Shown: in pieces, positions 29-23,834 of the stretch
How the letters are laid out: each line of letters opens with the position of its first letter
Position numbering within the stretch: the first letter of the stretch is position 1
Origin: an uncultured Lentisphaeria bacterium
GTDB taxonomy: Bacteria; Verrucomicrobiota; Lentisphaeria; Victivallales; UBA1829
Reading direction: 5' to 3'
DNA length: 64,000 nucleotides
Assembly (NCBI GenBank): GCA_949287225.1
Contig: CASEFP010000033.1
Span: 9,689 to 73,688 of the forward strand
Program-made: the position numbers and the translations under genes
The notes under the pieces: model-generated
The model's input: only the letters and a program-made list of their open reading frames with translations
Told to the model about the DNA's origin: nothing
The model's database searches: none

Positions 29-811
29 GTGACGGACGGCGCTTTTTCCGAGGTCCGCATGTCCGTGCTTCCCCGGAAGCAGTTTGCCGGACTTGCCGCC
101 CGTGCCAATGCATTTGCCGGAAAGAAACCGATGCGCATCCTTTATCTGGGAGACAGTCTTTCCGATTTTCTGCATGACCACAATTATACGGACAAAGTCA
201 ACTTTTTCCTGAATCTGCATGGGAAATCCTCCTTTCGCAACGCCGCGGTTCACGGCGACTACGTAACACGGACCCTCCAGCGCATGCGCGGAATCCACGG
301 TGGGAAAAAGGCATTCAAACAGTTCCGTTATCAGGATTTGTGGAAAGAGGAATACGACCTGATTTTCATCTGGCTGGGACATAACGACACCGTATCAAAC
401 ACGAGATGGAGCAGGGATCTGAGCGTTCCGCGCATTCTGCCGCCGGAACAGAAGAAACTTTACGGTGAGCTGCTCGGGGAAATCCGTCGTCACAGCAAGG
501 CACGGATCATCCTGGTTTCCGCCGCCTCCATCAACTTTGAGCAGGCATTGAAGCTGAGCGAGTCCATGAACCGTCCGGATCATATGCGTTACCTGTTCGG
601 CCGTCCCGAACTTCTGGAACAGTGGAACAGGACTCTCCGCGAAATCGCCGCCGAGCAGAAAACCGGTTATTTCGACATTTATACCCCGTTGGCGGCCTGC
701 CCGGAAAAGAATACACTCTTCTCTCCGGCGGACGGGCTCCATCCGACGGATCAAGGGCACAATTTCATTGCCGGACTTTTTCTTGATTATCTGAAACAAT
801 TCGCGGATTGA
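29..811 (+). CDS. SGNH/GDSL-family hydrolase (esterase-like)
   Basis: 260-aa ORF with SGNH blocks 'ILYLGDSLSD' (block I Ser), 'GHNDT' (block III Asn) and 'DGLHPTDQGH' (block V Asp/His). The frame is open back to nt 2, so the true start may lie upstream of the window or at an internal Met ('MRILYLGD'). Confidence 0.8.
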   Translation: MTDGAFSEVRMSVLPRKQFAGLAARANAFAGKKPMRILYLGDSLSDFLHDHNYTDKVNFFLNLHGKSSFRNAAVHGDYVTRTLQRMRGIHGGKKAFKQFRYQDLWKEEYDLIFIWLGHNDTVSNTRWSRDLSVPRILPPEQKKLYGELLGEIRRHSKARIILVSAASINFEQALKLSESMNRPDHMRYLFGRPELLEQWNRTLREIAAEQKTGYFDIYTPLAACPEKNTLFSPADGLHPTDQGHNFIAGLFLDYLKQFAD

Positions 812-827
812 TCCTGATGGAGAATGA

Positions 828-3134
828 TTGATCATGAAACTGCTGATTCCAAAATATGAAGGTATTTACCGCATCGCGGCGGATGAATTCAGAAGTTTCT
901 GGCATGCCATGACGGATGAAAGGGTGGAAGCCGTTACTGAGCCCGTTGGGGGAGAAGATCACGTCGTGCTCGGCGGCGACGAGGAGTTTCCGTTTGTGTT
1001 TGAACTGATCCTGAATGGAACGATTCCGCCGTTCGGCATCCCGATCGGCGGGGACTCTTTTGTTCTGCGCTCGGCGGAGATCGACGGGCATGACTGGCTT
1101 TTTCTCGCGGGAGGACGTCCCCGGGCCCTTCTGTATGCGGTCTACGCTTTTTTCGAACATCAGGGCTGTTCCTATTTCCCTGACGGCGACCGCATCCCGA
1201 AGCGTGCCAGCCTTTCTCTGAAAGGCTTTGATCTGTATGAAAGGAACCGTTTCCAATACCGCATGATCCGTTATTTCGCCCACCGCGGGCTGAAGCGTTT
1301 CCAGGCGGAATTCTGGGATTTTGAAGACTGGAAAAGAGAGATTGATTTTCTTGTCAAGCGCCGTTTCAATCTCTTCATGCTGCGCATCGGCATGGATGAT
1401 CTGTTTCAGAAGGCATTTCCGGATATCGTTCCCTATCCGGAAAACGGCAGAGTTCCCGAATCAATCCCCCATTCCTACAACGACCGCAATCTGTTCTGGA
1501 GCCTGGAGTATCGCGGCGCGCTGCGACGGAAAATTCTGGCCTATGCCCGTGAGCGCGATCTGCTCCATCCGGAAGATGTCGGAGTGGTGACTCATTGGTA
1601 CAGCCGCACACCGCAGGCTTATCTGGATCAAGCGGCTCCCCGTTTTATCCCGCAGGCTGGCGGCGCTTATTACGAACCGACCGGCCGGGCGTGGGATATC
1701 CGTGACAGAAAAAATCTTGAGGCGTATTTCAAATTGACCGAAACGCATATCCGCGAATACGGTTCACCGGATATTTTCCATACCATCGGACTGGCGGAAC
1801 GCATGTGCTTTCCCGAACGCAGGGAGAATCTCGCCTTCAAGCTGTATGTCTACCGAAGCATTATCAGCGAACTGCGGAAACGTTATCCGAATGCGCCTCT
1901 GCTGATCGGCACGTGGGATTTCTCGACTTTCTGGACTCCGGAGGAAGTTACCGCCTTTATCGGGGAGCTGGATCCCGGACGGAATCTGATCTTTGACTAC
2001 ACCTCCGATACCGATGATCCGGTCAATTATTTCATGAACTGGGGAGTAGTCCGGAAATTTCCGTGGATATTCGGAATCTTCAGCGCCTATGAATCCGAAA
2101 CGGATCTCCGGGGCGATTACACGCGGATTTCCGAACGCCTGAAGATTGCGGCGGCCGATCCGGAGTGCCGCGGATTCGCATTATGGCCTGAGTGTTCGCA
2201 TTCGGACATTCTCCTTATGGAGTATGTCTGCCGCAACAGCTGGAAGCCGGAACCGGAGCAGGGCATAAGACCGGTCATTGACGCACTTTGCCGGAGCCGG
2301 TATTCGGGAGAAATGCAAAAAGTCATGCATGCCGTCTGGCTGGAGGCGCTGCCTGTGATTGAAAGCCGTTTTTTCATCGGCCCCGTGACACCTCGCGGGC
2401 GCATGGGGCACGAAATCATTTTCAACGTGCTTCATGTCAAAAACTACCGGACATTCACACCGGAAAACCTGACCGCCCACCGCCTGACAGCCGAAACCAT
2501 GCGTGCTGCGGAATGTGTTCTTCCTGATCTTCTGTGCACCCTTGCCGCGATCGGGCTTCCGGATGAAGTGTTTGTATGCAAAGATCTGCTGGATCTGGCA
2601 AAAACAACTCTGGGGAGAGCGCTTCACATTCACCTTACGCATCTGATGCTTGACCTGGAACATTTCCGGAGCCGAATTTCCGGAGCCGCGGAATCTGTCC
2701 GGTCACGTCTTGCATTGATCGAATCGTGTTACGAGGCACTCCGCGACGTGCTGGCCTGTTCCGGAGATTTTTCTCTCAATCATACGCTGCACGCTCTGGA
2801 ACGTTCCGCTCCGGTTTATCCGGATTTCGTCGGGACTCTGAAAGCAGACGCAGGAAATCACTACTGCCGCTCTTACGTTTACGAGCTTTTTGATATGCTC
2901 TACCTGCCGGAATTCCGCCTCTACCGGAATTATACGGAAGAAAAAATTCTCCGGGAGGACCGTGGAATCTGGGATGATGCCGAAGCCCGTTTCCCTGAAT
3001 TGGAACAGCAGACGGAGGCATTTTATTATTCTGCTGCATTGCCCGGCTTTGCTCCGAATCTTTCTGAAGCACGCCGACATTATAAGCTGACAATGAAATC
3101 AATCGCATATAAATTGAAAGGGTTTTTACCATGA
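828..3134 (+). CDS. GH89-like alpha-N-acetylglucosaminidase family protein (leaderless)
   Basis: 768-aa ORF starting 16 nt after the SGNH stop. It matches NAGLU/GH89 blocks collinearly by eye: '[22 protein letters not shown]' (cf. W-x-W-E-R-E-I-D-W-M-A-L-N-G-I-N-L), 'IGLAERM' (F-N-E-M region), 'ALWPECS' (A-P-E-G-I region), '[12 protein letters not shown]' and 'YLPEFRLY'. No signal peptide. Confidence 0.7.
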
Positions 3135-3913
3135 TGAAAGAAAACAGAAATGCAAGGGGGAAACTCCGGAATTTTTCCCGTTCCCAGGGATGTTTCACAT
3201 TGATAGAGCTTCTCATCGTGATTGCAATCATTTCCATTCTTGCGGCGATGCTGCTTCCTGCGTTGCAGAAGGTTCGTGAGAAGGTCAAAGGCACCGCATG
3301 CATGAATCAGCAGAAGCAGATCATGCTTGCTCAGCAGCTTTACGCATCGGATTATGGGGATTATATGCTCGGTGCAAGAGGAAACTATTACCGGAACGCA
3401 CTTGACACCTTTCCTGTAGCCCTGGCGGCTCTGAAATATCTGTCAAAATGGGATTTCGCCATCTGTCCCGCCATGCCGCGGAAAGACACCAATTCTTCAA
3501 CCCGTTCTCTTCACACCATGGGCGTCATGGAATGTTTCACCACAAGCTGGAACGGGAACCAGATTCCTTATTACAAGGAACGGATTTCTGAAACCGGAGA
3601 TTACGCTGTATTCGTCAAAGATGCCGGGAATGCCCGTTTTTATGCCATCAGGAAGATGCGTGCTCCGGGAAAACTCGGTCTGCTGGGCGACACAATTCAG
3701 GGAAGCAGCGAGAACGAGTCGAAGGGGTATGGAGCCTATTATTTTTATCCGGCGACTGCAGGTTATCCTTATATGTATCTTTTTGCCGTGCACAATCTGC
3801 GGGTACAGCGGGCCTTTGCCGATGGTCATGTGCAGAGCGATTCCCCCGAGGAACTGATGAGCCGGGAAGAGATTCTGGCCCGGAAAAGCGGCACCTTCAT
3901 TCTGCAGCAGTAA
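3131..3913 (+). CDS. Prepilin-type N-terminal cleavage/methylation domain protein, H-X9-DG (DUF1559-type) pseudopilin-like
   Basis: Class III signal '[26 protein letters not shown]' (G|F-T-L-I-E). C-terminal '[14 protein letters not shown]' fits the H-X9-DG motif. The start overlaps the GH89-like stop (ATGA at 3131-3134). Confidence 0.9.
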
Positions 3914-3974: not shown

Positions 3975-5039
3975 TCAATACCAATTGGACTGAACGTTGC
4001 CGGAAGTATTTTCCGGGTTATCCGGATGTTCCGGATCAAAGACGAATCCATGGTGGTCCTCGTGGTATTTCTGTGGTTTTTCCGGCAGCCGCCACGGCTG
4101 TTCCACTGTAAACGGCTTTCTGAATAAATTGCGGATGCGTCGGCGTTTTTCAAGATGATTCATGCAGCTGATGATACAACCGCGTGCACCGCAGATTGCG
4201 ATTGGATACGCTGAAAATGCTTTGTAGGTTGGCAGCGCGTTGAACAGCGCATGTCCGAAGTTCCACCCTTCCACCCAGGTGTTGCCCTGTTCGAGAATCG
4301 GTATATAAATACCGGGAAACGATTTGACGAAATGCGGCGAAGTTGTCCGGTTCAATCCGAAGTGCGTAAGTTTACAGCGACCTAAAACCAGGTCGTTGCA
4401 CTGCCATTTGACTCCTCCTGCTTCAAAATCAATTGCACGTTCGCCACTGATCGCCTGTCCGGGACAATCTCGGACACAACATTTACAACCGTCGCATATT
4501 TCCCCGACCCGGATCGGATCAGGTTCCAGTTCGGCATCGGTCAGAATACACCCCAGACGCTGACGCGGTCCGAAATCCCGACTGAGGAAAACCTTGCTCC
4601 AACCCATTTCACCCAGTCCCGCCATCACAGCGGCGATCCGGAGACTGATGTTGATGTTGCGCGGATATTTGCCGCCGAGGGGGACAGGTCCGCGCGGACC
4701 GGATTCACGCAGTGTCGCCGCAGGTGGTGCGGGAACCGCTTCAAAGCCGTGGTCTTCGATGAAGCGCCCCAGACGATAATTCCCTTGATGAATGAGCTTG
4801 GTCAGTCCGGCGTAAGCGAAAACTTGATAACTCGGCCAGTGTGTGCCCCGCTCAATACCGCGATAACATCCGCGCAGAATCCGGCGGGTGAAAACAATGA
4901 CTGATTTGACTTCCGGCATGATCCTCCGCGGGTGCATGAAGTCCGGAGCATTATCGAAACGGCCAATGTCTGCAACCCCCAGTGCGTCGATTCCGAGTTC
5001 TTGCTTTGCATATTTTTTTAATTCATCTGAGGTCAGCAT
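3975..5039 (-). CDS. QueG/reductive-dehalogenase-like 4Fe-4S protein (paralogue 2)
   Basis: 354 aa counted from 'MLTSDELKKYAKQELGIDALGVADIGRF'. Motifs: 'AAVMAGLGEMGWSK', ferredoxin motif 'CDGCKCCVRDCP', and a second Cys cluster 'CGARGCIISC'. I chose the start at 5039 because it overlaps the upstream stop as ATGCTGA; the track ORF extends to 5084. Confidence 0.7.
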   Translation of the reverse strand: MLTSDELKKYAKQELGIDALGVADIGRFDNAPDFMHPRRIMPEVKSVIVFTRRILRGCYRGIERGTHWPSYQVFAYAGLTKLIHQGNYRLGRFIEDHGFEAVPAPPAATLRESGPRGPVPLGGKYPRNINISLRIAAVMAGLGEMGWSKVFLSRDFGPRQRLGCILTDAELEPDPIRVGEICDGCKCCVRDCPGQAISGERAIDFEAGGVKWQCNDLVLGRCKLTHFGLNRTTSPHFVKSFPGIYIPILEQGNTWVEGWNFGHALFNALPTYKAFSAYPIAICGARGCIISCMNHLEKRRRIRNLFRKPFTVEQPWRLPEKPQKYHEDHHGFVFDPEHPDNPENTSGNVQSNWY

Positions 5040-5797
5040 GAATGTGTTTTCTCCTCCAGGTGCCGGACACAGGCTCGGCCGCACGCCGCACCTACCCGGT
5101 TTGGTTCAAGTCCGAGCGAATAAGGACGGGGACTGGTGCCTGTCCGGCAAATCTGGCAGCTTTCGTACCGCAGTGCCCAGTGCGGCATCCGTCCCGTAAT
5201 CTGTTTTGTGTCCAGCGCAAGCGCTGGGCATGCCTTGGCGCATTCGCCGCAATGATCGCAGAGATGTCCGCGGAAAATCGGATCTGCTTCCAGTTCCAGT
5301 TCTGTTAAAACCGCTGTAAACTCCTGCCGCGGGCCAAATTCCGGAGTCAGAAAGAGTTTTCCCATCCCCATTTCTCCTAATCCCGCCTGTTGCGCAGCCA
5401 GTTCCATGTCGATGATGACGTCCGGCGCAGCGCGATCCGGTGCCACCGGGATGCCGCGGTCGCGCAAATCATAGGAATGGCGTATCAGCGGCAGCGCCTC
5501 ATAGCCGTTTTCTTCGATTTCACGGCAGAAATGGTAGGTCGCCTCCTGCATGTAGGTGCACATTCCTCCGGGATCGGAAGCGGAAAAAGAGCCCCAGTTG
5601 CTGCCGTTTTCAATGCCGCGCAATGCGCCGCGCAATATTCGGAAACCGAGAACAATCACGGAACTGGTATCGGGTTTGATTTCCCGGGGATTCTCACTCA
5701 TCGGAACATTGGCAAAGCGTTCGACTGAAGCAATGCCGACCAGGTCGGCGCCGCAGCGGCGGGCTAAGTCTTTGATGAAGGAGGCATTCATTGTCAT
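5033..5797 (-). CDS. QueG/reductive-dehalogenase-like 4Fe-4S protein (paralogue 1)
   Basis: 254 aa. Motifs: 'FIKDLARRCGADLVGIASVERF', 'AAQQAGLGEMGMGK', 'CDHCGECAKACP', and downstream Cys residues 'CQICRTG...ACGRAC'. The start overlaps the oxidoreductase stop (ATGA at 5794-5797). Confidence 0.7.
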   Translation of the reverse strand: MTMNASFIKDLARRCGADLVGIASVERFANVPMSENPREIKPDTSSVIVLGFRILRGALRGIENGSNWGSFSASDPGGMCTYMQEATYHFCREIEENGYEALPLIRHSYDLRDRGIPVAPDRAAPDVIIDMELAAQQAGLGEMGMGKLFLTPEFGPRQEFTAVLTELELEADPIFRGHLCDHCGECAKACPALALDTKQITGRMPHWALRYESCQICRTGTSPRPYSLGLEPNRVGAACGRACVRHLEEKTHSC

Positions 5798-6831
5798 TTC
5801 GCGGAATCCTTTCGCATCATCAGCGCAATGGCTTTGATTCCGGCAACAATGGTTTCCGGTGAGACCTCATCAGGCAGAGGTCCGTTACGCACTGCGCGGT
5901 AAAAGTTTTCATATTGATAACTGCCGCTGCGTTCGGCAGCGGGCAGTTCTACGCTTTCCACATGCAGGCGACCGCCGCGGAGCGTTTCAAGGCGCATGGA
6001 TACACCAGTAAAGTCGCGGTCGGCGACGGTGCGGACCTGTGTTTTGTAAATGGTGCCGTGTTCAAAGTGCAGTGTGAATGCGGATGGATACAGCCGGCCG
6101 TCTCCGATGCAGAGCGCGGAGTAGATACTGCCGATTGCGCCGTTGGCAAAGCGCAGCAGCAGCTGAGCATTATCCGGTGTCGGCCGCCCGGTGGCGATTC
6201 TTCCTGAAATAACTTCCGCGTCTTCAGGTTCCCCGAAGATGGCAATCATTTCATTTATACCGTAAATCCCGATCCTGAAGATTGGCGCAACGGGACATTT
6301 TTCCGGCGAATCGAACCATGATCCATCGGCGGTTTCGTGGTATTCAGCATAGGTTTCCCAGTGCCCCGCCACCGGTTTTCCCAGATTGAAATCCTTGCGC
6401 CAGAGTCTGATCTGAGCCAGATCACAAGAGGGCAGCGGACCAGGAGAATTGAGATGTAAGACCAGATTGCGTTTACGCGCTTCCTGCAGCACATTCAGCG
6501 CCGCATCTGCGTCGAGATCGAACGGCTTGGTGGTCAGGACGTGCTTGCCCGCAGCCAGACATTCCCGGATCACCGCCGACCGCCCTGCCGGCGGAATCAT
6601 CAGCATTATTGCTTCCACCGCCGGATTGTTCAGAACTTGCTCCAGCTCCGTGCAGAAAGGCAGCTTATGCCTGGTTCCGAACGCTTCAGCTCTGGCACGG
6701 TTCCGATCGCAGACTGCAATGATTTTAAGCTTGGATTCAATCGGTCTTCCGATCAGCTGACGTTCCGCCAGACCTGCGCCGAAATTCAGTCCGACCAAAG
6801 CCATTCGGACCGGGTTGAAGTTTCTGTCCAT
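5794..6831 (-). CDS. Gfo/Idh/MocA-family NAD(P)-dependent oxidoreductase
   Basis: 345 aa. N-terminal Rossmann 'MALVGLNFGAGL', 'IIAVCDRN', and 'GKHVLTTKPF' (E/T-K-P motif). No signal or Tat leader. The start overlaps the upstream stop by 1 nt (TAATG). Confidence 0.85.
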   Translation of the reverse strand: MDRNFNPVRMALVGLNFGAGLAERQLIGRPIESKLKIIAVCDRNRARAEAFGTRHKLPFCTELEQVLNNPAVEAIMLMIPPAGRSAVIRECLAAGKHVLTTKPFDLDADAALNVLQEARKRNLVLHLNSPGPLPSCDLAQIRLWRKDFNLGKPVAGHWETYAEYHETADGSWFDSPEKCPVAPIFRIGIYGINEMIAIFGEPEDAEVISGRIATGRPTPDNAQLLLRFANGAIGSIYSALCIGDGRLYPSAFTLHFEHGTIYKTQVRTVADRDFTGVSMRLETLRGGRLHVESVELPAAERSGSYQYENFYRAVRNGPLPDEVSPETIVAGIKAIALMMRKDSAK

Positions 6832-9800
6832 TATTTTATTCTCTCCAATTTTATATCATCAAACCAGATGTTGGCCTGGGTCGTTTTTTCTGTGAGGGAG
6901 GATTGAAATCTTGCCGAAGCGATGCCGACGGCGGGAACGGTAAAACGGAATTCAAATTTCCGCCATCCCGATTTGGAGGTCTGACTCAATTCAGCAGAAT
7001 AATCCTTGAGGGTGCTGGGGGCATGCACGATCTCGACTGGAATTCTGCCGTTCTGTGATTTCGGCCTGAAACGGTGAAATGTCATCAAGCCTTTTTCCGG
7101 AGTGAAATTCCATATGAAAAGATTTTCCAATCCTGGTTCGGAGCGGAAAAAACCGGAAAGTTTCCACTGCCCCGGATGAACCAGTATTTCGGCTGTTTCC
7201 AGCGAAGTCTGCTGACCGTAGCTCCATCGGCGGCTGAGGGTAATCCGGAGCGATGGGGGAGCGGAGAAATAGTTCTTCGGGTCAAGGTATCCGAAATTAC
7301 GGGAATAACCGCGCCAGGGACTTACCGACTTCTCGCGGGCGCGATACTCATGAATCAGGCGCGGGAATTCTTTTTTTTCAGTCAGGGGCCAGGAATTGAC
7401 GATGTCATCGTAACTCATTTGCCGACCGGCGGGCAAATGCCAGTTCGAAAACCAGCCCGGGTTTTTGCTGAAATCACCGTTAAGCAGCGTTTTGGCGGCG
7501 GCACGGCGGCGCAGGCTGAGCGCCGCTTCGAGGTATTCGGCACCGTGTTCCGGAGTAATTGCCGCCATACGGAAAATATCCATCGGCATACGGTAATAAT
7601 ATCCTCGCAGAAATTCCGCGTAAGCCGCCGTCCCCGCCAGTCGGAGCATTTCCGGTTTCCCGAAGGTTTCCGCATAAAAACGCATCAACGGATACATCAG
7701 CGCTCCCCGGTGGCCGGAGTGATAGCCAAGCTGGATCGGCCAGGCTGTTTCGGGTGGAAGACCGGGCCATAATTCCTGCAGGTCGTGACGGTAAAAATCC
7801 ATGTTGAGCGAGGCATTCATTTCACGGCGAAATGAGTTAAGCAGACGGGCATCGCCGGTCAGTTTATACATTTCCATCATTGCACAGGCGCCATACCAGA
7901 CCTGATAAGGATCCAGCCGGCCATGCCAGTGAAAAATCGTCTGGTCTTTTTCGGCGGGTTTGAGCTTCCGCTTTTCCACGTGTTCCAGCTGATCCATGAA
8001 TCGCTGCCGCAATCCGGGACTGCCGGTCATCGCATAAAAATCAGCCAGACCGAGGAGGTAACGGGCAAGTGAGCGGGACTCCTGGATGTAAGCGTCATCT
8101 GCCTGGCGTTCCCGGTAGCGGTTTGCCAGTTCCAGACAGACTTCGCGGCTTCGCGGATCGCCGGTCATCAGATAGTGAATGATTATCCCCTGTGGCCAGG
8201 AATGCGAAAAATCGTAACGGACTCCTCCGGAATGATTCGAACTGTGGTAACAAGCCGAACCGTCGATTACATCTACGTCGCGGTAATGCCGCGCCCGTTC
8301 CAATGCCGCAGCCCAGCTGTCCAGATCATTTGTTCCCACAGCGTAAATCATTTCGGAAAAATCAAGAAACGATTCCAGATTTCCCCATCCTCCATCACCG
8401 TAAACGTCTCCGTAATTGAAAACTCCGTGCAGAACTTTGACCTGGTTTTTAAGCAGAGCCTCACCCTTGGGAAATCTTTTTTTGATTGAAGTCAGGATTT
8501 TTTCAGCCAGCGGCAGTTTTTTATCGACCCGTCCAATCGGAATTATGAAGAATCCGCTCCGGATGAATTCATCCGGATCCGCCAGTGCCGTCGCCCGGTC
8601 ACCGAAACGTTCCCGCGCCTCCTTCACGGATGGAGGGAGATAAACAAATTCCCGGTTGATCGACATTTTCCTGCTCAATATCAGCGCCTTGAGCGATTTC
8701 GGCCAGATCCAGGCGGTAAAATCGCCTTTGCGGTCAAGTTCCAGCAGTGCCGGATGCCGCAGCGAGGCTTCCCGGAAAATCAATGTTCCGGCGTTTCCTG
8801 ATACGGCCCCGCAGGAAATGTCGGGCGGCATGGCGAAGCATCGAGTCTCCGGTGCGTAGGTCTGGCTGTAGACGGCGGCTTCTCCCTGCCTGCCGCTGAT
8901 GATACGCAATCCTGCGTTTCGGATCGCCAGCGGCATGTCGCTGCTGTTGAAGACCGCGGCGTCGATGACAGTGGCTCCGTTGGAATGAAAGGTTTTGATT
9001 CGCAGTGTGTATTCGCCTGGCGAACTGCCTGCGGAGTCACAGAAGATACCGCGGCGCAGTTCGCGGGAGAATACGGCACCGTCTCCTTCGCTTTCGCGGA
9101 TGATCTCTTTCCCTTCATAAAAGTTTCCGGCAGTGTCCTCCATAAAGATGCGGAATTCCGGAGCTTCCCGGCGGAACACTCTCCCGGGAGCCGTTCCGGT
9201 TCCAGGAATGAGTTGGAAACCTGTGCGTCCGGCTTGCAGATCTCCTTCAAAATCGACCGCAGCCGAACGGATGCTTCCATCTCCGGGCCATCGCGCAGTC
9301 ACTGTGGCCTGTGCCGGATAAATTTTCCCGTTTTCATCCTGAACCGCCGCATTTCCGATCATGAAACATTTCCCGGGAGCGAACGGAATTCCCACTGTAA
9401 CTGGAACCCCGGTTGCTTGACGCGGATACTGAACTGTAAATCGGCATGTTCCGGAAAATGTCCCGGCGCGTCCGGTTCCGAGATCTGTTTGCGGCAGCGC
9501 CTGCAAGCGCTCTCGCAGCAATTTTTCTGCGATAGCCCGAGTCCTGAGCACGGGACGGTATTCCTGCCATGACGTGAGCGCTCCCCTTTCCAGCTGAGCT
9601 GCGTCTGCCCAGATTTTTCCTTCGGAAAGCGGCGTTATCCGGATAAAAAAGGGGGCACTTCCCGCCTCGAAACGGAGCCATGTCCGTTTGATTTTCAGGA
9701 TGCAGCGCCGCCAGTCGCCTGACGTCTCGAAATCTTCGCCTGCCAGCTGGAAAGGCGCGAACCCGCGATAGCTGAAAACTTCAATTCTGACTTTGCCATG

Positions 9801-10187
9801 GGGCGGTGCGGACTTGAGATAAATGGAAAAGAAGCCATCCCCATGGTACCCTTCTCCTTGTAATATCAATGGATTCTTGCCAATGCCGACAAGGGATTTC
9901 CGACCGTGAAATGCCGTGGTATGATCCATACTCCAGCCGGGACAACCCTGCAGATAGGAATGATCCTTCATCCGGTTCCATTGCCCGGCGCCGCCGGATT
10001 CAAAACTGCTGTCCGACAGCAGATTGCCGGAAGCGGAAGTTTTTCCCCGCATGGCTTTATCTGGCATCGGAATGTTTGTGGCCGTCGTTTCGGCGGCGGT
10101 TGCGCCTGCACAGACAAAAACTGCCGCCAGTGTCAATGCCGCGCGCCGCAGTTGATGCCGAAAAGATCGGTTCTTGTAAAATTTCAT
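6831..10187 (-). CDS. Large secreted protein with terminal CBM-like jelly-roll modules and a central alpha/alpha-toroid-like region (putative polysaccharide lyase/hydrolase)
   Basis: 1118 aa with a signal peptide ('LTLAAVFVCAGATAAE'). N-terminal module runs 'NLLSDSSFESGGAGQW...IWADAAQLERG'. C-terminal module runs 'LLNGDFSKNPGW...IWFDDIKLERIK'. The central region 'NYGDVYGDGGWGNLE...RHYRDVDVID...FSHSWPQGIIIHYLMTGD' is reminiscent of PcRGLX/YetA-type toroid enzymes. The functional class is tentative. Confidence 0.5.
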   Translation of the reverse strand: MKFYKNRSFRHQLRRAALTLAAVFVCAGATAAETTATNIPMPDKAMRGKTSASGNLLSDSSFESGGAGQWNRMKDHSYLQGCPGWSMDHTTAFHGRKSLVGIGKNPLILQGEGYHGDGFFSIYLKSAPPHGKVRIEVFSYRGFAPFQLAGEDFETSGDWRRCILKIKRTWLRFEAGSAPFFIRITPLSEGKIWADAAQLERGALTSWQEYRPVLRTRAIAEKLLRERLQALPQTDLGTGRAGTFSGTCRFTVQYPRQATGVPVTVGIPFAPGKCFMIGNAAVQDENGKIYPAQATVTARWPGDGSIRSAAVDFEGDLQAGRTGFQLIPGTGTAPGRVFRREAPEFRIFMEDTAGNFYEGKEIIRESEGDGAVFSRELRRGIFCDSAGSSPGEYTLRIKTFHSNGATVIDAAVFNSSDMPLAIRNAGLRIISGRQGEAAVYSQTYAPETRCFAMPPDISCGAVSGNAGTLIFREASLRHPALLELDRKGDFTAWIWPKSLKALILSRKMSINREFVYLPPSVKEARERFGDRATALADPDEFIRSGFFIIPIGRVDKKLPLAEKILTSIKKRFPKGEALLKNQVKVLHGVFNYGDVYGDGGWGNLESFLDFSEMIYAVGTNDLDSWAAALERARHYRDVDVIDGSACYHSSNHSGGVRYDFSHSWPQGIIIHYLMTGDPRSREVCLELANRYRERQADDAYIQESRSLARYLLGLADFYAMTGSPGLRQRFMDQLEHVEKRKLKPAEKDQTIFHWHGRLDPYQVWYGACAMMEMYKLTGDARLLNSFRREMNASLNMDFYRHDLQELWPGLPPETAWPIQLGYHSGHRGALMYPLMRFYAETFGKPEMLRLAGTAAYAEFLRGYYYRMPMDIFRMAAITPEHGAEYLEAALSLRRRAAAKTLLNGDFSKNPGWFSNWHLPAGRQMSYDDIVNSWPLTEKKEFPRLIHEYRAREKSVSPWRGYSRNFGYLDPKNYFSAPPSLRITLSRRWSYGQQTSLETAEILVHPGQWKLSGFFRSEPGLENLFIWNFTPEKGLMTFHRFRPKSQNGRIPVEIVHAPSTLKDYSAELSQTSKSGWRKFEFRFTVPAVGIASARFQSSLTEKTTQANIWFDDIKLERIK

Positions 10188-10254
10188 GATTGGTTTCCTT
10201 ATAAGTTAAAAATTTTGCAGTCGATTTTTTATGCGTTTCAGCCGGAAGCTCCCT

Positions 10255-11058
10255 TTAATCAGCCGCCGGATTCCATACCGGACCGTCCCATACGGCTGTT
10301 CCGTATTTGTTGCATGGAAATTTATCCCATTGCAATTTGACGACGTGAAGATCGGCATAAAGAAAGTTGGCTCCTCCCGTGTGCCGGGCCGGAACATTTT
10401 TCCGGGTTTTCGTATCCTCGCTGATATCAGGATGCCAGCGGCAATTATAATTGACTTCGCCAGTTCCGCAGCTGTCGGACATGTAAACCAATACCGACGG
10501 ATAGCGGATCCGGTGACTCCGCACCGGCTTATTCTGATCCGGATTCCGGATTTTATCATTTACCGCAAGCGAAAAAAAAGTGCCAACGTCGTAATTGCGA
10601 TTGGCCAGTTTCCCCGTCATCTCGATCGTGAGGTTGTCCTGAGATGTTGCCGGACAGGTGAACGGACCAATGCTCTGAGTTTTGTTGTTCTTATAATAAC
10701 CGCCTAAATAGACATTGCCATGATTGGAATACTTGCCCCAGTTCAAATATGCACTCAGCGGGCCGGACACCCGCCAGAACCAATAAGCTGTTGAGATCTT
10801 GACAGCCCCGGTGGACGTCGTGTAGTATGTCGGGGGAAAGCAGTCATAATAATCGGAAAGATAGCTTGCGGTAATTCTGCCGATCTGGGAAAAATTGTTG
10901 GTGCAGGCGATATTGCGCGCACTCTCCCTTGCCTGTTTCAGCGTGGGAAGAAGCAGGCTTGCAAGAATCGCGATGATTGCAATTACAATCAATAACTCAA
11001 TCAATGTGAAATAATTACAGTAAAACTGCTTTTTCCGGCTTTTCGCTGCTGTTTTCAT
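10255..11058 (-). CDS. Prepilin-type N-terminal cleavage/methylation domain protein (DUF1559-type pseudopilin-like)
   Basis: '[31 protein letters not shown]'. The C-terminal '[14 protein letters not shown]' is a variant of H-X9-DG. It is the first gene of the 10255-3975 minus-strand operon. Confidence 0.9.
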
Positions 11059-11338: not shown

Positions 11339-12406
11339 TCAAGTAACCTGATTGATTCGCGGTGCGGCACCGGTAGTCAGCCCCGCCACAGTAAAACACG
11401 GAACCTGGATCGACGGTGCTGGATCTGTCCGGAAATTGTGCTGCGCAACCAGACGCGCAGCTTCAAATCCCATCTCCTGAGTTGGTATGTAAATCCGCGT
11501 TGCCCTTGCGGCGGGAGTAATCCCGTCGGGTGTAAACTCAACCCAGGAAGGCGTCTCCGGAATTTTTCCCTCAAGAGTTTTGAGTGTCATGAGAAACATT
11601 TCCAGCAATGGCGTAATTACAATATAAGCGGTAATTTGGGGGTGCCTGAGGATAAATTCAGCCAGAGCCGCATCCGACGAAGCATCCGTTTTGAAGATAT
11701 CCCTGTTCATTTTATATTCTTCAGCCGCCATTCGAAATGCCGCCTGCCGCGCCAATGCCCATTCCTGAACGCCTGACCGTTCAATGAACGCCACACTCCG
11801 ATGCCCTGCGGCGGCAAGCAGATTAAACAATGTCCGCCACGCAGGAAGGCTGTCGTAGCTGACTGATCCCGTTCCCTGAATATGCGAATCCACGACCACC
11901 TGCGGTATTCGCGATTTGCTCAAAGCAGTAATCGCCGGCGGCAACATTTCTGAAAGTGCACACCAGATAAAAGCGTCCGCAAGAAAATTATGGTACATTT
12001 CCTGGAGTGCCGCCCCGGTTTCATCATGCGAACCTATGGTGATTTCCAGTCCTTCCTCCAGTGCGAATTTATTGACTCCCGCAGCAATTTCCCCCACAAA
12101 ATTTCCCGCGATTCTTCCTTCGGGTAACAGCAGATGAATCTTTCCGGTTACACGCTCCATCCGGGAGCGTTCGCTGGCGGGAATTACAAAATTCCCCTGT
12201 CCCTTGCGCTTGCGGATATAGTTCTGCGTCCGCAGATTTTCCAGTGCCTTACGCATTGTTTTCCGACTCACTCCGTAAGCGGAACTTAAAGCGATTTCGC
12301 CGGGAAGCGCTTCTCCCTCCGGAAGCATACCGCTGATGATCCGGTTTCGCAGATCGTTTTCAATCCGGCTGTAGCGAGTGTTGTTTATCATCCATCGTGC
12401 AAGCAT
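11339..12406 (-). CDS. GntR-type HTH regulator with periplasmic-binding-protein (LacI-type sugar-binding) effector domain
   Basis: 355 aa. N-terminal GntR wHTH 'LPGEIALSSAYGVSRKTMRKALENLRTQNYIRKRKGQGNFV', followed by a roughly 270-aa PBP-type domain. Same strand as, and directly upstream of, the pseudopilin-led operon. Confidence 0.8.
   Translation of the reverse strand: MLARWMINNTRYSRIENDLRNRIISGMLPEGEALPGEIALSSAYGVSRKTMRKALENLRTQNYIRKRKGQGNFVIPASERSRMERVTGKIHLLLPEGRIAGNFVGEIAAGVNKFALEEGLEITIGSHDETGAALQEMYHNFLADAFIWCALSEMLPPAITALSKSRIPQVVVDSHIQGTGSVSYDSLPAWRTLFNLLAAAGHRSVAFIERSGVQEWALARQAAFRMAAEEYKMNRDIFKTDASSDAALAEFILRHPQITAYIVITPLLEMFLMTLKTLEGKIPETPSWVEFTPDGITPAARATRIYIPTQEMGFEAARLVAQHNFRTDPAPSIQVPCFTVAGLTTGAAPRINQVT
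11349..11423. repeat. Diverged direct repeat, copy 2 (authentic 3' end of the regulator gene)
   Basis: Partner of 11102-11176; see that entry. Confidence 0.8.
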
Positions 12407-16191: not shown

Positions 16192-16905
16192 ATGACAAAA
16201 TCGCTTCACAAGACGTTTGACATTCTGGAGTATGTGGTTCTGCAGTGCGGTCGGAGCATCACGCCGGGAGAAGTCGCCGCGTATGCGAAATTGAACGCGG
16301 CGACCTGCACAAGGATCATGGGCGAACTGGTCGGGCGCGGATATCTGGACAAGGTTTCCCGGAAGGCGGGCTATGTTCCGGGGCCGATGGTGGTTTCGCT
16401 CGGGACGCGCGACAACAGCTTTCGCCGCCTCGCCGCCGCGGCGAACGAGCCTGTCCGCGCGCTTGCCGAACGCATTCGCATGACCGTGAATCTGGCGGTG
16501 ATGCACCGCGGGGAGCGGATCATGCTCTGTTTTCACTCCGCGCGGGCGAACTGGACCCCGTGGAAGCGTTTTACTTTCGGGGACGATCACGCTTCGGCCG
16601 CGACCGGCTGGCTTCTGCTTGCCGCGATGGACGGGGAGGAGGCAATGCGGATCATTCGGGAGAAACATCTTCCGATTACGCGGCGCGATCTGGCGCTTGT
16701 TTCCCGGCGCGGGTTTGTCGATTTTGTTTCATCGGAGGATTCCATCCGGGTGATGGGGCATCTGATCCGGGTGGATGGTTATCCGCCTGCCGCGATCGGG
16801 TTCGGCATTCGGAAGGGGGATGATCCCGCTGAAATCCTGAAACTTTCGGAGGAGACCGCGCAGAGGATCCGCTCCAATCTGACGCGGGAGGAACGGACCT
16901 ATTGA
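16192..16905 (+). CDS. IclR-family transcriptional regulator
   Basis: 237 aa. N-terminal wHTH 'FDILEYVVLQCGRSITPGEVAAYAKLNAATCTRIMGELVGRGYLDKV' plus a C-terminal effector domain. Confidence 0.8.
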   Translation: MTKSLHKTFDILEYVVLQCGRSITPGEVAAYAKLNAATCTRIMGELVGRGYLDKVSRKAGYVPGPMVVSLGTRDNSFRRLAAAANEPVRALAERIRMTVNLAVMHRGERIMLCFHSARANWTPWKRFTFGDDHASAATGWLLLAAMDGEEAMRIIREKHLPITRRDLALVSRRGFVDFVSSEDSIRVMGHLIRVDGYPPAAIGFGIRKGDDPAEILKLSEETAQRIRSNLTREERTY

Positions 16906-16941
16906 AATTCTGAAAATTACATATGGAAAAAAGGACGGAAA

Positions 16942-18807
16942 ATGAGTTTGATCTGGAATGAAAAGAACACTCCGGCGGAACTGCATTCCATTTTGCGGAC
17001 GCTCGGAGAGGAGTATCCCCTGCGGGAAGGTTCACAGGGCGTCTGCCTGAGCTTCGAGAAGGCGGCGGAACGGGAAACACTGCGTGTGACGAAACACGAT
17101 GACGCGTTTCTTGTGACTTACGGCGATCCATCTTTTGCCGCGCGCGGCGTCGCAAATGCCCTGTCCGGGCAGGAGTGCGACGAGGAAATCTGCTTCACCA
17201 CACACGGCATTCTGCTGGACTGTTCGCGTGCCCCCGTCGTGCGGGCTGATTATTTCAAACGCTGGCTCCGGCGCCTTGCTCTGCTCGGCTACAATATGGC
17301 GATGCTCTATACGAAAGACGCGTATCAGCTTCCGGGAGAGACCTATTTCGGTTACATGCGCGGAGCTTATTCCATGGAGGAGATCCGGGAAATCGACGCG
17401 TATGCAAAACAGCTCGGCATCGAGATCATCGCCTCGATTCAGGCGCTCGGCCATCTGGAGCCGGTTCTGCGCTGGGGCGTTTATCATGAGGTCAGGGATA
17501 CGGACAACGTGATTCTGGCGGACTGTGAAAAATCCTATGTGCTTCTGGAAAAGATGATCCGCTTCTGGAGCGACGCGCTTTCCTCCCGGAGGATTCATCT
17601 CGGGATGGACGAAACGCACGATCTCGGGCGCGGCAGATTCATGGACATGCACGGATACGAACGGCCGTTTGACATCTACAACCGCCATTTGAACCGTCTT
17701 TGCGGTATCTGCACGAAATATGATCTCAAACCGGTCATCTGGAACGACATGTATTTCCGCTACGCGAACAGGACGCAGAGTTATTATGATACGGAATCGC
17801 CGGTCCCGCAGGACGTGAAGGACGCGATTCCGAAGATGGTCCAGCTTTCCTACTGGGACTACTACCATCGCGATGAGGAGACGTATCTCAGGATGCTGGA
17901 ACGGTCGCGCGATCTGAACGGCAATGCTCCGTTCATGGCGTCGGGCGTCTGGACCTGGTCGCGTCTCTGGTATGACCCGGAGCAGACCCTTGCCACTGTG
18001 AAACCCTGTGTCGACGCCTGCCGGCGCCTGGGCATCCGCGACATGGTCTACACGATGTGGGGCGACGACGGCGGCTACTGTGAATTTGAATCCGCGTTCG
18101 CGGGGCTTGCCTGGGCGGCGGACTATGCGTTCAATGCCGAGCCTTCCGATATGCGTGTGAGCGCTCTTTACCATGCGGTCTGCGGAAGTTCTTATGAACT
18201 GCAGACGGAACTCGGAAAAATGGAGATCGCCTGCCGCGAAGGAGCGCGCGAAACATGGTACAATGTCAATGCCGCTTCCGTGCTCTGGGATGATCCGCTG
18301 ATGGGGATCGTCTGGCACGAGATGCTGGCACGCGATCCGGAGATCTGGAACAGGGCGCTGGAGACTTACCGGACTCTGCGCGGCAGGGTGGAGGCGCACC
18401 GCGAAGACCGCGCGGCGGGAATCGTCAATCACGCGTGGAACATTCTGAATGTGCTGGCGAAGAAGGTCGAACTGCGTCTTGTGCTGCTGAACGCCTATGC
18501 GAAACGCGACTTTTCCACGCTCGGCGTTGTCGCGGAAAAATATGTGCCCGAGGTGATCGAGGCAGTTGAAGGACTCAATGAATCCTTCCGCGACCAGTGG
18601 TTCCGGGGATACAAGTCCTACGGCCTTGAAATCATGCAGATCCGTCTGGCGGGACTCCGCGAGCGGTATGAGGAGCTGGCGCGCCGGATCGACGAACTGC
18701 TCGACGGGCGGATCGAAGCGATCGACGAGCTGGAGCTTCATCCGGAATGCGCCGGCCTGGGCGAGACGCGCTACCGGATGCTGGCCACCGGCGGATGGTT
18801 TGTCTGA
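16942..18807 (+). CDS. GH20-family beta-N-acetylhexosaminidase-like protein (leaderless)
   Basis: 621 aa. Motifs: 'HGILLDCSRAPV', 'LALLGYNMAMLYTKDAY', and 'IHLGMDETHDLG' (H-x-G-x-D-E catalytic pair region). No signal peptide. Confidence 0.75.
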   Translation: MSLIWNEKNTPAELHSILRTLGEEYPLREGSQGVCLSFEKAAERETLRVTKHDDAFLVTYGDPSFAARGVANALSGQECDEEICFTTHGILLDCSRAPVVRADYFKRWLRRLALLGYNMAMLYTKDAYQLPGETYFGYMRGAYSMEEIREIDAYAKQLGIEIIASIQALGHLEPVLRWGVYHEVRDTDNVILADCEKSYVLLEKMIRFWSDALSSRRIHLGMDETHDLGRGRFMDMHGYERPFDIYNRHLNRLCGICTKYDLKPVIWNDMYFRYANRTQSYYDTESPVPQDVKDAIPKMVQLSYWDYYHRDEETYLRMLERSRDLNGNAPFMASGVWTWSRLWYDPEQTLATVKPCVDACRRLGIRDMVYTMWGDDGGYCEFESAFAGLAWAADYAFNAEPSDMRVSALYHAVCGSSYELQTELGKMEIACREGARETWYNVNAASVLWDDPLMGIVWHEMLARDPEIWNRALETYRTLRGRVEAHREDRAAGIVNHAWNILNVLAKKVELRLVLLNAYAKRDFSTLGVVAEKYVPEVIEAVEGLNESFRDQWFRGYKSYGLEIMQIRLAGLRERYEELARRIDELLDGRIEAIDELELHPECAGLGETRYRMLATGGWFV

Positions 18808-18868
18808 AAAAATTACCGGCGGATGGATCCGTCCGCTGCAACCTGTTTTCAAAAAGGAAACTTCAATC

Positions 18869-20545
18869 ATGAGCAAAGAGTCTGATCGTCAGGCGATGCA
18901 TTTCATCGAAAACGAAACCCAGTTTCACCTCGGCTTTCTGCCGACGGAGCAGTCCAGTCCGCTGACGCGGAATCTGGACCGCGAATTCGCTTCCGGAAGC
19001 GGAAACGGCGTGCGCTGTCTTCAGCGCGTCGACCGCAATGTGCTGGAAATGGCGGGGCGCATTTTCCGGAGCGAAGCGTTCCGGCGTCTGGTGGAGAGCG
19101 GAAAAAAGACCATCGCCGACGGAGGGAAAATCGTCTTTTCCGGCTGCGGCGCGACAGGCCGCCTGAGCATTCTTCTTGAGTGCATGTGGCGCGACTGCTG
19201 TGCGAAACACGCGTCCGTTGCGCGTTATGCCGATCAGGTATGCAGCATCATGACCGGCGGCGATTACGCGCTTGTCCGTTCCGTGGAGTTCTTCGAGGAT
19301 TATCAGGAGTTCGGCCGTCAGCAGGTGCGGGAAATGGGCATGACCGGCAATGACATGCTCGTCGCGATCACCGAGGGCGGCGAAACCTCCTCCGTGCTCG
19401 GAACCGTGGACGAGGCGCTCCGCCGCGGATCGAAGGTTTTTCTGATGTTCAACAATCCCGCCGATCTTCTGGCGGAGCATCTGGAACGTTCGCGCCAGGC
19501 GATCCGGAATCCCGCCGTCTGCGTGCTGGACCTCTCCTGCGGGCCGATGGGACTTGCCGGATCGACGAGAATGCAGGCGACGACCTCCGAACAGCTGGTC
19601 GGAGGCGCCGCGCTGGAGCTGGTCATGTGCTCGCTCCTGAACGTGCCCGCGCCGGACTATGTCAGGGAATTTGAAACCCTGCTCGGAGAACTTGAAGCGT
19701 CCGCGGACACGATCGGAGCTTATATCGACTTCGAGGCGGGCGTCTACCGGAAGAAAGGAAAGATCACCTATTTTGCGGACGACTTCCTTCTGGACATCTT
19801 CACCGATACGACCGAACGCTCCCCGACGTTCATGCTTCCGCCGTTCCGGAAAAAGGATGACAAGGTCTCTCCGATGCCGTGGGCGTTTGTCAAGAATCCG
19901 CTGCGCACGACGCCGGAGGTCTGGGAGCACGGCATGCACCGCGCACTGCGCTGTCTGGAGTGGACCCCGGAAGACTACAAACGCATGGGCGCGCCGGAGG
20001 CGATTCAGGCGAATCCTCCGAAAATCGCCGCTGCGGAACTCCTGAAATTCGAAGTCGGAAACGAGTCCGTGGCGGAGCGCTGCGGCTCCGGAGAGGACGG
20101 CGCCGTTCTCGTGACCGTCGGGGGGCAGGGGGACGGCCCGGACCTTCAGAGGGCGTTTGATACCCTTTCCGCCGGATTCCGTTATAAGAAACGTCTCGCG
20201 GTAGGAGGGAGCGGTGCGGCGGATTTCAAAATTCCCGTCACCTGCGCGGACACTCCGCTGCATCTCATGTTCCATATGGCCGTGAAGCTGGTTCTGAACA
20301 CCGCTTCGACGGGGATCATGGTGACGCTCGGGCGCGTCACGGGGAACTGGATGAGCTGGGTCGATGTGACCAACAAGAAGCTGATGGACCGGGGCATCCG
20401 GCTGATCTGCGAGATCGGCGGACTGGATTACCGCGAGAGCTGCAGACGGCTGTTCGCCGCCGTCGAGGAACTTGCGGCAAGTCCGGCTCCGGCAAAGGAG
20501 AAACCTTCCGCCGTCCAGATTGTGCTCAACAGTCTGCGGAAATAA
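18869..20545 (+). CDS. Double-SIS-domain protein (MurQ etherase/GCKR-like)
   Basis: 558 aa from 'MSKESDRQAMHFIENETQFHLGFLPTEQ'. Motifs: 'GGKIVFSGCGATGRLS', 'LVAITEGGETSSV' and 'GSTRMQATTSEQLV' (cf. MurQ G-S-T-R-L-K). It is about twice the length of MurQ. The track ORF's 5' extension (18566-18868) overlaps the GH20 gene and was discarded. Confidence 0.65.
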   Translation: MSKESDRQAMHFIENETQFHLGFLPTEQSSPLTRNLDREFASGSGNGVRCLQRVDRNVLEMAGRIFRSEAFRRLVESGKKTIADGGKIVFSGCGATGRLSILLECMWRDCCAKHASVARYADQVCSIMTGGDYALVRSVEFFEDYQEFGRQQVREMGMTGNDMLVAITEGGETSSVLGTVDEALRRGSKVFLMFNNPADLLAEHLERSRQAIRNPAVCVLDLSCGPMGLAGSTRMQATTSEQLVGGAALELVMCSLLNVPAPDYVREFETLLGELEASADTIGAYIDFEAGVYRKKGKITYFADDFLLDIFTDTTERSPTFMLPPFRKKDDKVSPMPWAFVKNPLRTTPEVWEHGMHRALRCLEWTPEDYKRMGAPEAIQANPPKIAAAELLKFEVGNESVAERCGSGEDGAVLVTVGGQGDGPDLQRAFDTLSAGFRYKKRLAVGGSGAADFKIPVTCADTPLHLMFHMAVKLVLNTASTGIMVTLGRVTGNWMSWVDVTNKKLMDRGIRLICEIGGLDYRESCRRLFAAVEELAASPAPAKEKPSAVQIVLNSLRK

Positions 20546-23664: not shown

Positions 23665-23834
23665 AAAAAGCGTTTCCTTTTTTTGATTTGCATTTTTATG
23701 GCATTGTTTTATATTCTTCACTGTCATTATAATCAGGCATTTAAAAAATGCAATGATAAAATGGTAACATTGATTTTGAATTTTGTAACCCCGGCGGGGA
23801 CTCCGTTTTCGGGGAAAACAGAGAGGATGATTGA

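Follow-up and report, generated by a model that had tools for sequence, protein, structure and literature searches.

The locus described here raises the question of what a pair of iron-sulfur (Fe-S) proteins, related to epoxyqueuosine reductase (QueG) and to the reductive dehalogenases (RdhA), is doing in an operon behind a large exported enzyme. It lies in a stretch of 64,000 nucleotides (nt), hereafter the window, of an uncultured Lentisphaeria bacterium (assembly GCA_949287225.1, contig CASEFP010000033.1, positions 9,689 to 73,688 of the forward strand). The list of open reading frames (ORFs) places five minus-strand genes at 3975-11058, which encode in order a pseudopilin-like protein, an exported protein of 1118 amino acids (aa), a Gfo/Idh/MocA oxidoreductase and the two Fe-S proteins, here called A and B. 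Our best reading is that A and B form a cytoplasmic, probably corrinoid-dependent heteromer acting on an unsaturated-uronate sugar derived by a lyase, and we give about one chance in two to the more general statement that they are a heteromeric reductase of the class III type with a lyase-derived sugar as substrate. The operon itself is best explained as a sugar-regulated glycan-utilization unit of a bird-gut Victivallaceae bacterium.

The five genes, the 67-nt gap behind the first of them and the three overlaps that follow had been described in an earlier note made from the same DNA, and the ORFs and a reading of the junctions confirm them. The large gene and the dehydrogenase gene meet in a TAATG overlap ('ataaTAATGgac'), the dehydrogenase gene and gene A in an ATGA overlap ('gaaATGAcaatg'), and genes A and B in an ATGCTGA overlap ('cATGCTGAcc'); these stop/start overlaps suggest that the block may be co-translated. 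The longest ORF of B begins at a GTG at 5084, which is not the start of B because alignments with homologs begin at residue 1-2 of the ATG form. The next gene upstream of the operon encodes a regulator combining a GntR-type helix-turn-helix (HTH) with a LacI-type sugar-binding domain, and the same type of regulator stands upstream in five further loci (L001, L006, L010, L011, and L013). In the single RNA-type run examined (X21, chicken gut), two 151-nt contigs fall inside gene A (5081-5231 and 5288-5438) at 100% identity, which hints weakly that the gene may be expressed in vivo, DNA carry-over being possible. A promoter and terminator scan found 12 terminator-like sites versus 11.7 in shuffled sequence, that is, no excess.

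It had been proposed that the two Fe-S proteins are paralogs of the QueG/RdhA superfamily with shared cysteine motifs, and all of this stands. A and B are 40% identical over 198 aa (E 7e-44). Among 47 diverse homologs of A, C180, C183, C186, C190, C214, C217, C239, and C243 are invariant, and among 51 sequences of B, C182, C188, C192, C222, C288, and C292 are present in 100%, C185 in 94% and C283 in 88%; eight conserved cysteines in each protein make two [4Fe-4S] clusters per subunit likely. The best-conserved stretch of either protein is AGLGE.G...FLTPEFGPRQ, and the N-terminal module of both is strongly conserved, with many invariant residues other than cysteine. B differs from A by an insert of ~60 residues inside the second cluster motif and by a C-terminal tail of ~60 residues; no Pfam family matched B or, likewise, its tail. 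The AlphaFold model of A, built with 47 homologs, has a pLDDT (predicted local distance difference test) of 85.6 and a pTM (predicted template-modeling score, TM) of 0.87. All 46 of its 46 Foldseek matches at E <= 0.001 are PceA (E 4e-10, TM ~0.6), NpRdhA (TM ~0.6) or QueG (E 5e-8, TM ~0.5), with CblC/MMACHC next (CblC E 6e-3), and every structural relative of A is thus a corrinoid protein. A sequence search of the PDB with A placed PceA 8Q4H (5.8e-11) before NpRdhA (1e-6, residues 4-215) and QueG (8e-4), and the A profile matched PceA 8Q4H at E 1.4e-19. The NCBIfam RDH and QueG models match A and B partially, within the stretch from AGLG to the first Cys motif, and the module order of the class III cobalamin/[4Fe-4S] proteins is present, the nitroreductase/CblC-type module coming first and the ferredoxin module, with its two [4Fe-4S] motifs, second.

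A single tyrosine above the corrin (QueG Y101, PceA Y246) is common to all solved class III enzymes. In the corresponding loop of this family B keeps Tyr71 and Tyr76 in 51 of 51 sequences and A keeps Tyr71 in 35 of 51, the window's A having Phe71, and this pattern hints that B may be the catalytically intact subunit. PceA Y246 aligns to about residue 75 only through a weak segment of 5.9 bits, and the position in A and B that aligns with the catalytic Tyr of the dehalogenases is ambiguous. At least one of the two subunits, more likely B, probably holds a base-off corrinoid.

Across the family it is the A/B pair that is conserved. A word-indexed search for A returned upward of 1,100 relatives, from Victivallales, Lentisphaerae, Armatimonadota, Omnitrophota, Brocadiia, Verrucomicrobiae, and Oscillospiraceae. 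Among species-representative genomes, 273 encoded relatives were confirmed, and 1.84 billion representatives searched by profile yielded 229 clusters (50% identity) at E <= 1e-30 and 2,263 at E <= 1e-10; the 79 loci that were fetched add Planctomycetota, Kiritimatiellae, Spirochaetes, Clostridia, WS1, and two Bathyarchaeia. Family members occur as a pair or as a fusion, often in several copies per locus, and the pair usually has an IclR, AraC, or GntR regulator for a neighbor. An A-type gene is followed directly by a B-type gene in 51 loci (gap -14 to +117 nt), and about one-third of the top 150 profile matches, 725-836 aa long, contain two or more modules. A joint tree resolves A and B as two separate clades (support 0.999), and the A-A and B-B identities correlate across the 51 loci (r = 0.89), indicating that the duplication predates the spread over phyla and that the two genes have stayed together since. 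Moreover, this long-standing pairing and the fused forms give the picture of an obligate hetero-oligomer, which A and B would then form in the window as well.

The 1118-aa protein has a Sec-type N-terminus as judged from its sequence, and its sole Pfam match is PF19501 PcRGLX_1st (22.9 bits vs a cut-off of 22.1). Its AlphaFold2 (AF2) model (pLDDT 83) consists of an N-terminal beta-sandwich resembling a carbohydrate-binding module (CBM), RIFT/beta domains, an alpha-helical toroid (~560-900) and a C-terminal CBM-like beta-sandwich. The jelly-roll modules that had been read at both ends thus appear as beta-sandwiches, matching CBM16, CBM22, and CBM61 in Foldseek, and the guess of a polysaccharide lyase (PL) or glycoside hydrolase (GH) fold resolves to PL26, the top 13 matches all being the PL26 enzyme PcRGLX (5xq3, 5xqo; E 3e-13, ~940 aligned columns). 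The three-domain PcRGLX fold is found by structure; by sequence the protein falls outside PL26, since the models of the second and third PcRGLX domains (PF21345, PF21346) go undetected, and a PDB sequence and profile search with it returned no lyase, only tetratricopeptide repeats (TPR) that stem from N-terminal inserts of some homologs. There are 19 relatives; about one-third of the homologs are ~1,300 aa long with an extra N-terminal TPR region absent here (P0123, P0124, P0129, P0130, P0132, P0133). On the strength of the model and of what follows the homologs of this gene in related bacteria, we regard the protein as a putative lyase.

The order large protein-Gfo/Idh/MocA-A-B is found in seven loci (the window, L006, L007, and L009-L012), all of them from gut Victivallaceae/Lentisphaeria (of chicken, yak, roe deer, and other hosts), with large proteins 43-50% identical to each other, genes apart by overlaps or a few bases, and a pseudopilin gene usually upstream. 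The four-gene block that had been suggested as a catabolic module is therefore conserved in this clade and confined to it. As a family-wide unit it was rejected, because no metabolic partner is constant across the 79 loci, and the earlier interpretation is thereby supported in part: superfamily, paralogy, and fold hold, and the module as a conserved unit gives way to the pair.

It is in comparison with a sister subclade that the block becomes informative. GH88 enzymes act only on the 4,5-unsaturated uronyl ends made by lyases. In the sister subclade, where the large protein has 36% identity, the order is pseudopilin-large protein-GH88 in three of three loci (L008, L092, and L093); the GH88 proteins are without a signal peptide, all large proteins carry one, and no GH88 homolog was found in the 64-kb window or in its syntenic loci. 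The two subclades have more than 120 invariant residues of the large protein in common, which makes the same chemistry likely in both. The presence of GH88 in the same slot supports the view that the large protein is a lyase and that the Gfo/Idh/MocA protein, A, and B handle the same kind of product, and it limits the candidate substrates to unsaturated uronate sugars released by lyases; the earlier suggestion of such a substrate thus gains comparative support. A dehydrogenase and a putative Fe-S reductase in the place of GH88 imply redox chemistry on the same kind of product. Other contexts of the pair are consistent with a link to uronate-active enzymes. L001 has the order Gfo/Idh/MocA-pseudopilin-811-aa right-handed beta-helix protein-A-B-SASA esterase, a beta-helix protein follows B in L014, a DUF4962/heparinase II/III protein lies nearby in L003, a PcRGLX-like giant lies ~10 kb from the pair in L088, and in L089 the pair stands directly after a GH78 rhamnosidase, near GH106 and altronate dehydratase genes. 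The regulators found beside the pair are likewise of sugar or small-molecule types.

The Gfo/Idh/MocA protein matches PF01408 (61.4 bits, E 1.8e-16), PF22725 (44.7 bits, E 1.6e-11), and PF02894 (24.1 bits), all above cut-offs, with the N-terminal NAD(P)-binding (nicotinamide adenine dinucleotide [phosphate]) Rossmann domain and the C-terminal alpha/beta domain of its family. Neither NCBIfam nor the PDB gave an equivalog-level assignment, its PDB relatives being generic (best E 1.6e-10), and no signal peptide was read in it. The pseudopilin gene stands directly before the large exported enzyme in five other loci as well (L006, L008, L092, L093, and L001). More widely, in many loci of Lentisphaerota a DUF1559/prepilin-type gene comes immediately before the gene of a large exported glycan-active enzyme, often with a gap of a few bases or an overlap; among these enzymes are the PL26-like protein, a beta-helix protein, and a GH42-like protein. 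Every glycan operon seems to come with a pseudopilin of its own, pointing to a dedicated partner in secretion or surface display.

We propose that the exported, CBM-flanked PL26-like enzyme, helped or anchored by the pseudopilin, would cleave a uronic-acid-containing glycan by beta-elimination, giving fragments with 4,5-unsaturated uronate ends. After uptake, these fragments would be processed by the three presumably co-translated cytoplasmic proteins, which would stand in for the GH88 of the sister lineage. The Gfo/Idh/MocA protein may use NAD(P) to oxidize or reduce a hydroxyl or keto group at a ring position of the sugar, and A/B may pass low-potential electrons through the [4Fe-4S] chain to a probable base-off corrinoid. 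The two-electron step at the corrinoid could be the reduction of the C4=C5 enol ether/enoate or of an enone that the dehydrogenase has produced, or else the reductive cleavage of a C-O bond.

Several observations weigh against this proposal. The similarity of the large protein to PL26 is low (TM 0.42 query-normalized and 0.51 target-normalized, identity 11-12%), and the replacement of GH88 is a matter of three versus seven loci in related uncultured gut bacteria. No fragment of the X21 run spans a gene junction, which leaves the run silent on co-transcription. When all ORFs within 9 kb of the pair in the 79 loci were clustered and then annotated, only regulators recurred outside the gut clade and no metabolic partner was constant. 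An IclR regulator lies directly upstream in 25 loci, and the neighbors include an AraC regulator in 6 loci and a GntR/LacI-type regulator in 5; Gfo/Idh/MocA proteins were counted in 11 loci, a PF12831 flavin adenine dinucleotide (FAD) oxidoreductase in 8 and a URO-D-like protein in 6, and a Cys-rich protein of ~350 aa, with lone B-like genes, in 19. The other neighbors are very mixed and comprise fucosidases, GH38, heparinase-type proteins, and xylose-isomerase-like TIM barrels, and also housekeeping genes; glycan or sugar genes are present in seven of the nine contexts annotated with Pfam, and the remaining two (L090 and L091) are non-carbohydrate. In addition, cobalamin binding has no sequence signature among class III B12 enzymes (PMC4646009). 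We found no characterized member of the A/B family and no biochemical datum in the literature, where a preprint (10.1101/2022.04.25.489410) merely notes an 'epoxyqueuosine reductase' ORF beside a beta-glucuronidase.

Some of these observations favor the alternative that survives best, namely that A and B are a self-contained, regulated reductase for a small molecule other than a sugar (for instance a natural organohalide, epoxide, aromatic compound or other xenobiotic), serving detoxification or as an electron sink, and that the glycan operon is a lineage-specific co-option. Regulators as the only recurrent neighbors, the housekeeping genes among the others and the carbohydrate-free contexts are all in line with it; IclR regulators are classical sensors of organic acids and aromatic compounds, and the closest solved relatives of A are dehalogenases. 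Nevertheless, we consider it rather unlikely. A and B were rejected as RdhA, the matches to TIGR02486 being partial and reaching 49.8 bits in A and 48.8 bits in B against a cut-off of 160.35; no Pfam Dehalogenase match, TAT (twin-arginine translocation) signal, adjacent RdhB or reductase domain was found for either protein, and both start directly with the core (MTMNASFIKDLARRCGADLVGIA and MLTSDELKKYAKQELGIDALGVA). The dehalogenases pair their catalytic Tyr with an Arg or Lys (PceA Y246/R305; NpRdhA Y426/K488). The column of R305 and K488 aligns with E159 of A and is variable among family members (E, V, I, F, L, M), which speaks against dehalogenation, and the overlaps with a sugar dehydrogenase that are kept in seven loci, the recurrence of the pair beside lyase-type folds, rhamnosidases, fucosidases, and sugar-binding regulators, and the GH88 in the same slot of the sister subclade all count against this alternative as well.

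Next in order is the idea that A and B work without a corrinoid, as an Fe-S and possibly flavin-containing electron-transfer partner that links the Gfo/Idh/MocA protein or another enzyme to ferredoxin; their nitroreductase-like module would then serve some other purpose, and the pair would not itself catalyze a new reaction on a sugar. The nitroreductase fold binds flavins in other families, both subunits have the full two-cluster motifs expected of an electron conduit, in the loci inspected the pair had no genes for B12 transport or salvage beside it, and the class offers no testable cobalamin-binding motif (PMC4646009). We find this reading doubtful, because every significant structural match of A, down to CblC, is a corrinoid protein and its best-conserved stretch is the block that PceA, NpRdhA, and QueG have in common around the corrin and the proximal cluster. 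The conservation of the N-terminal module, including Tyr71 and Tyr76 of B, would be unexpected for a mere wire, and most pairs have no dehydrogenase as a neighbor.

QueG carries a strictly conserved D-Y-H tripeptide and a catalytic Asp (D100-Y101-H102 and D130 in S. thermophilus). The tripeptide is absent from both A and B, whose matching loops read WGSFSAS and WPSYQVFAY. TIGR00276, by which A and B were rejected as QueG, scores 32.4 bits in A and 34.2 bits in B against a cut-off of 200 and covers ~70 residues (approximately 128-204). In QueG, residues 1-181 form the cobalamin region, 182-257 the ferredoxin region and 258-372 the helical repeat (PMC4646009), and A (254 aa) ends where the ferredoxin region ends, without the C-terminal helical-repeat domain. 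That one of the two is nevertheless the organism's QueG in a fortuitous neighborhood, as the weak TIGR00276 match and the Joint Genome Institute (JGI) automatic annotation of many family members as 'epoxyqueuosine reductase QueG' might suggest, is scarcely credible in view of these differences, of pairs or fusions beside catabolic-type regulators, and of a Foldseek ranking with PceA and NpRdhA above QueG; the earlier expectation that neither protein is the orthologous QueG is thus borne out.

Table 1. Coordinates of the operon, of its surroundings and of related features at other loci
Feature	Locus	Position	Strand	Remarks
Fe-S subunit B	window	3975-5039	-	354 aa from ATG at 5039; paralog of A
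Fe-S subunit A	window	5033-5797	-	254 aa; class-III-B12-enzyme fold; nitroreductase/CblC-like module plus ferredoxin module with two [4Fe-4S] motifs
Cytoplasmic Gfo/Idh/MocA NAD(P)-dependent oxidoreductase	window	5794-6831	-	345 aa; PF01408, PF22725, PF02894
Exported PL26-like putative polysaccharide lyase	window	6831-10187	-	1118 aa; 67-nt gap after pseudopilin gene
Pseudopilin-like exported protein, DUF1559 prepilin-type	window	10255-11058	-	267 aa; PF07596 E 1.1e-8, N_methyl, SBP_bac_10, TIGR04294 H-X9-DG
Regulator, GntR-HTH/LacI-type sugar-binding	window	11339-12406	-	355 aa; PF00392 GntR E 2.5e-15, PF13377 Peripla_BP_3 E 6.8e-8
Pseudopilin gene after B	window	3131-3913		convergent
Host-glycan and amino-sugar genes	window	29-3913, 16192-20545, 22012-24114		within 25 kb around the operon
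Pseudopilin gene	L006	8254-8958
Pseudopilin gene	L008	8336-9004
Pseudopilin gene	L092	348-1100
Pseudopilin gene	L093	5362-6141
Pseudopilin gene	L001	4649-5527
Pseudopilin gene	L065	2492-3277
Fused multi-module protein	L029	1365-3587
Fused multi-module protein	L046	1591-3831
Fused multi-module protein	L018	46-2340
Fused multi-module protein	L021	11876-14197
Fused multi-module proteins	P0145, P0153, P0155 and others
GH4	L007	15437-16807		directly after B
GH4	L009	5530		directly after B
GH4	L010	11796-13181		directly after B
GH4	L011	11820		directly after B
Cys-rich protein, ~350 aa	L082	9574-10647
Cys-rich protein, ~350 aa	L029	6012
Cys-rich protein, ~350 aa	L032	2333
Cys-rich protein, ~350 aa	L046	4709
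IclR-A'-A-B	L065	8323-12003		Oligosphaera ethanolica DSM 24202, cultured
A-B pair, Bathyarchaeia	L031	268-2144
A-B pair, Bathyarchaeia	L047	208-2092

The surroundings of the operon and of its relatives offer a number of further observations (Table 1). The 25 kb around the operon are rich in host-glycan and amino-sugar genes, which encode an SGNH esterase, a GH89-like NAGLU, GH20, a double-SIS GKRP-like protein, and GH2; taken together, the region resembles a glycan-foraging island. GH4 enzymes are NAD+/Mn2+-dependent glycosidases with a redox-elimination mechanism; a GH4 gene lies directly after B in four of the seven block loci, the window not being among them. The fused QueG/RdhA-like proteins are often found under an IclR regulator, with additional single modules alongside. 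Several Lentisphaerae have IclR-A'-A-B triples, in which two A-type genes precede B; besides the cultured organism listed in Table 1, these are L037, L038, L041, L045, L049, L050, L055, and L081. The ~350-aa Cys-rich protein, which belongs to no Pfam family, has a C-terminus of the form ...CDKNCHRCGYC... and is absent from the window's operon; it occurs also in L051, L053, L058, L060, L064, L067, L071, L076, L083, and L087. Two archaeal (Bathyarchaeia) metagenome-assembled genomes carry an A-B pair, which takes the cassette across the domain boundary provided that these assemblies are free of contamination and mis-binning.

To our knowledge, the established chemistry of class III B12 enzymes comprises just two reaction types, the reduction of organohalides by RdhA and that of epoxyqueuosine by QueG. 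Those who solved the QueG structure predicted further families, which could not be told from sequence (PMC4646009), and the A/B family, populous and spread over many anaerobic phyla and Bathyarchaeia, is a concrete candidate for one of them. It is an unstudied branch of the class III B12/[4Fe-4S] superfamily, for which the window gives a specific and testable link to a substrate and the sharpest functional lead so far, with the pair coupled to a sugar dehydrogenase, behind a lyase-like enzyme, in the slot of a GH88. It is possible to go further and to see in A/B the founding example of a third functional branch, a heteromeric and cytoplasmic reductase directed at sugars, which with the Gfo/Idh/MocA protein would replace the hydrolytic GH88/GH105 step by a reductive route for 4,5-unsaturated uronates. 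We hold this wider claim to be improbable as it stands. If it were true, the catabolism of glycans by anaerobes would include a step that depends on B12 and is widespread in gut, rumen, and sediment, and models of the breakdown of gut fiber and host glycans would gain a vitamin B12 requirement and a new reaction.

Unsaturated glucuronyl and rhamnogalacturonyl hydrolases (GH88/GH105), followed by KduI/KduD or DhuI/DhuD, are the known route for such products. Like the proposed A/B pathway, this route is cytoplasmic and its gene directly follows that of the exported large enzyme (L008, L092, and L093), but it is hydrolytic, proceeding by hydration of a vinyl ether without a redox cofactor, whereas the window has a dehydrogenase and a putative two-subunit Fe-S reductase in its place. 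The only full-length structural match of the 1118-aa protein is PcRGLX, the PL26 exo-rhamnogalacturonan lyase of Penicillium chrysogenum (5XQ3, 5XQO), from which the protein differs in being bacterial, in having a signal peptide and extra CBM-like modules at both ends, and in belonging to no assigned CAZy family. With regard to A, the best structural and sequence relatives are PceA (4UQU, 4UR3, 8Q4H) and NpRdhA (4RAS, 6ZY0), which share with A/B the nitroreductase/CblC-like module followed by the two-[4Fe-4S] ferredoxin module and, immediately ahead of the first Cys motif, the AGLG...G(P/x)R block. A and B are much shorter, lacking the ~140-residue N-terminal region of PceA, and unlike the dehalogenases they are a co-evolving heterologous pair in the company of sugar-type regulators and glycan genes. 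Since PceA forms a homodimer and NpRdhA retains a vestigial second core (PMC12219181), a two-module assembly seems usual for the class III fold; the RdhA-like 'novel clade' described in the same work is membrane-anchored and different from A/B. QueG (5D6S, 5D08, 5T8Y) is cytoplasmic and without a signal peptide as are A and B, has the same N-terminal regions in the same order, and its residues 1-257 approximate the length of A. In contrast to the paired or fused A/B proteins in their catabolic context, it is encoded by a lone housekeeping gene and has the D-Y-H motif and a helical-repeat domain for tRNA binding.

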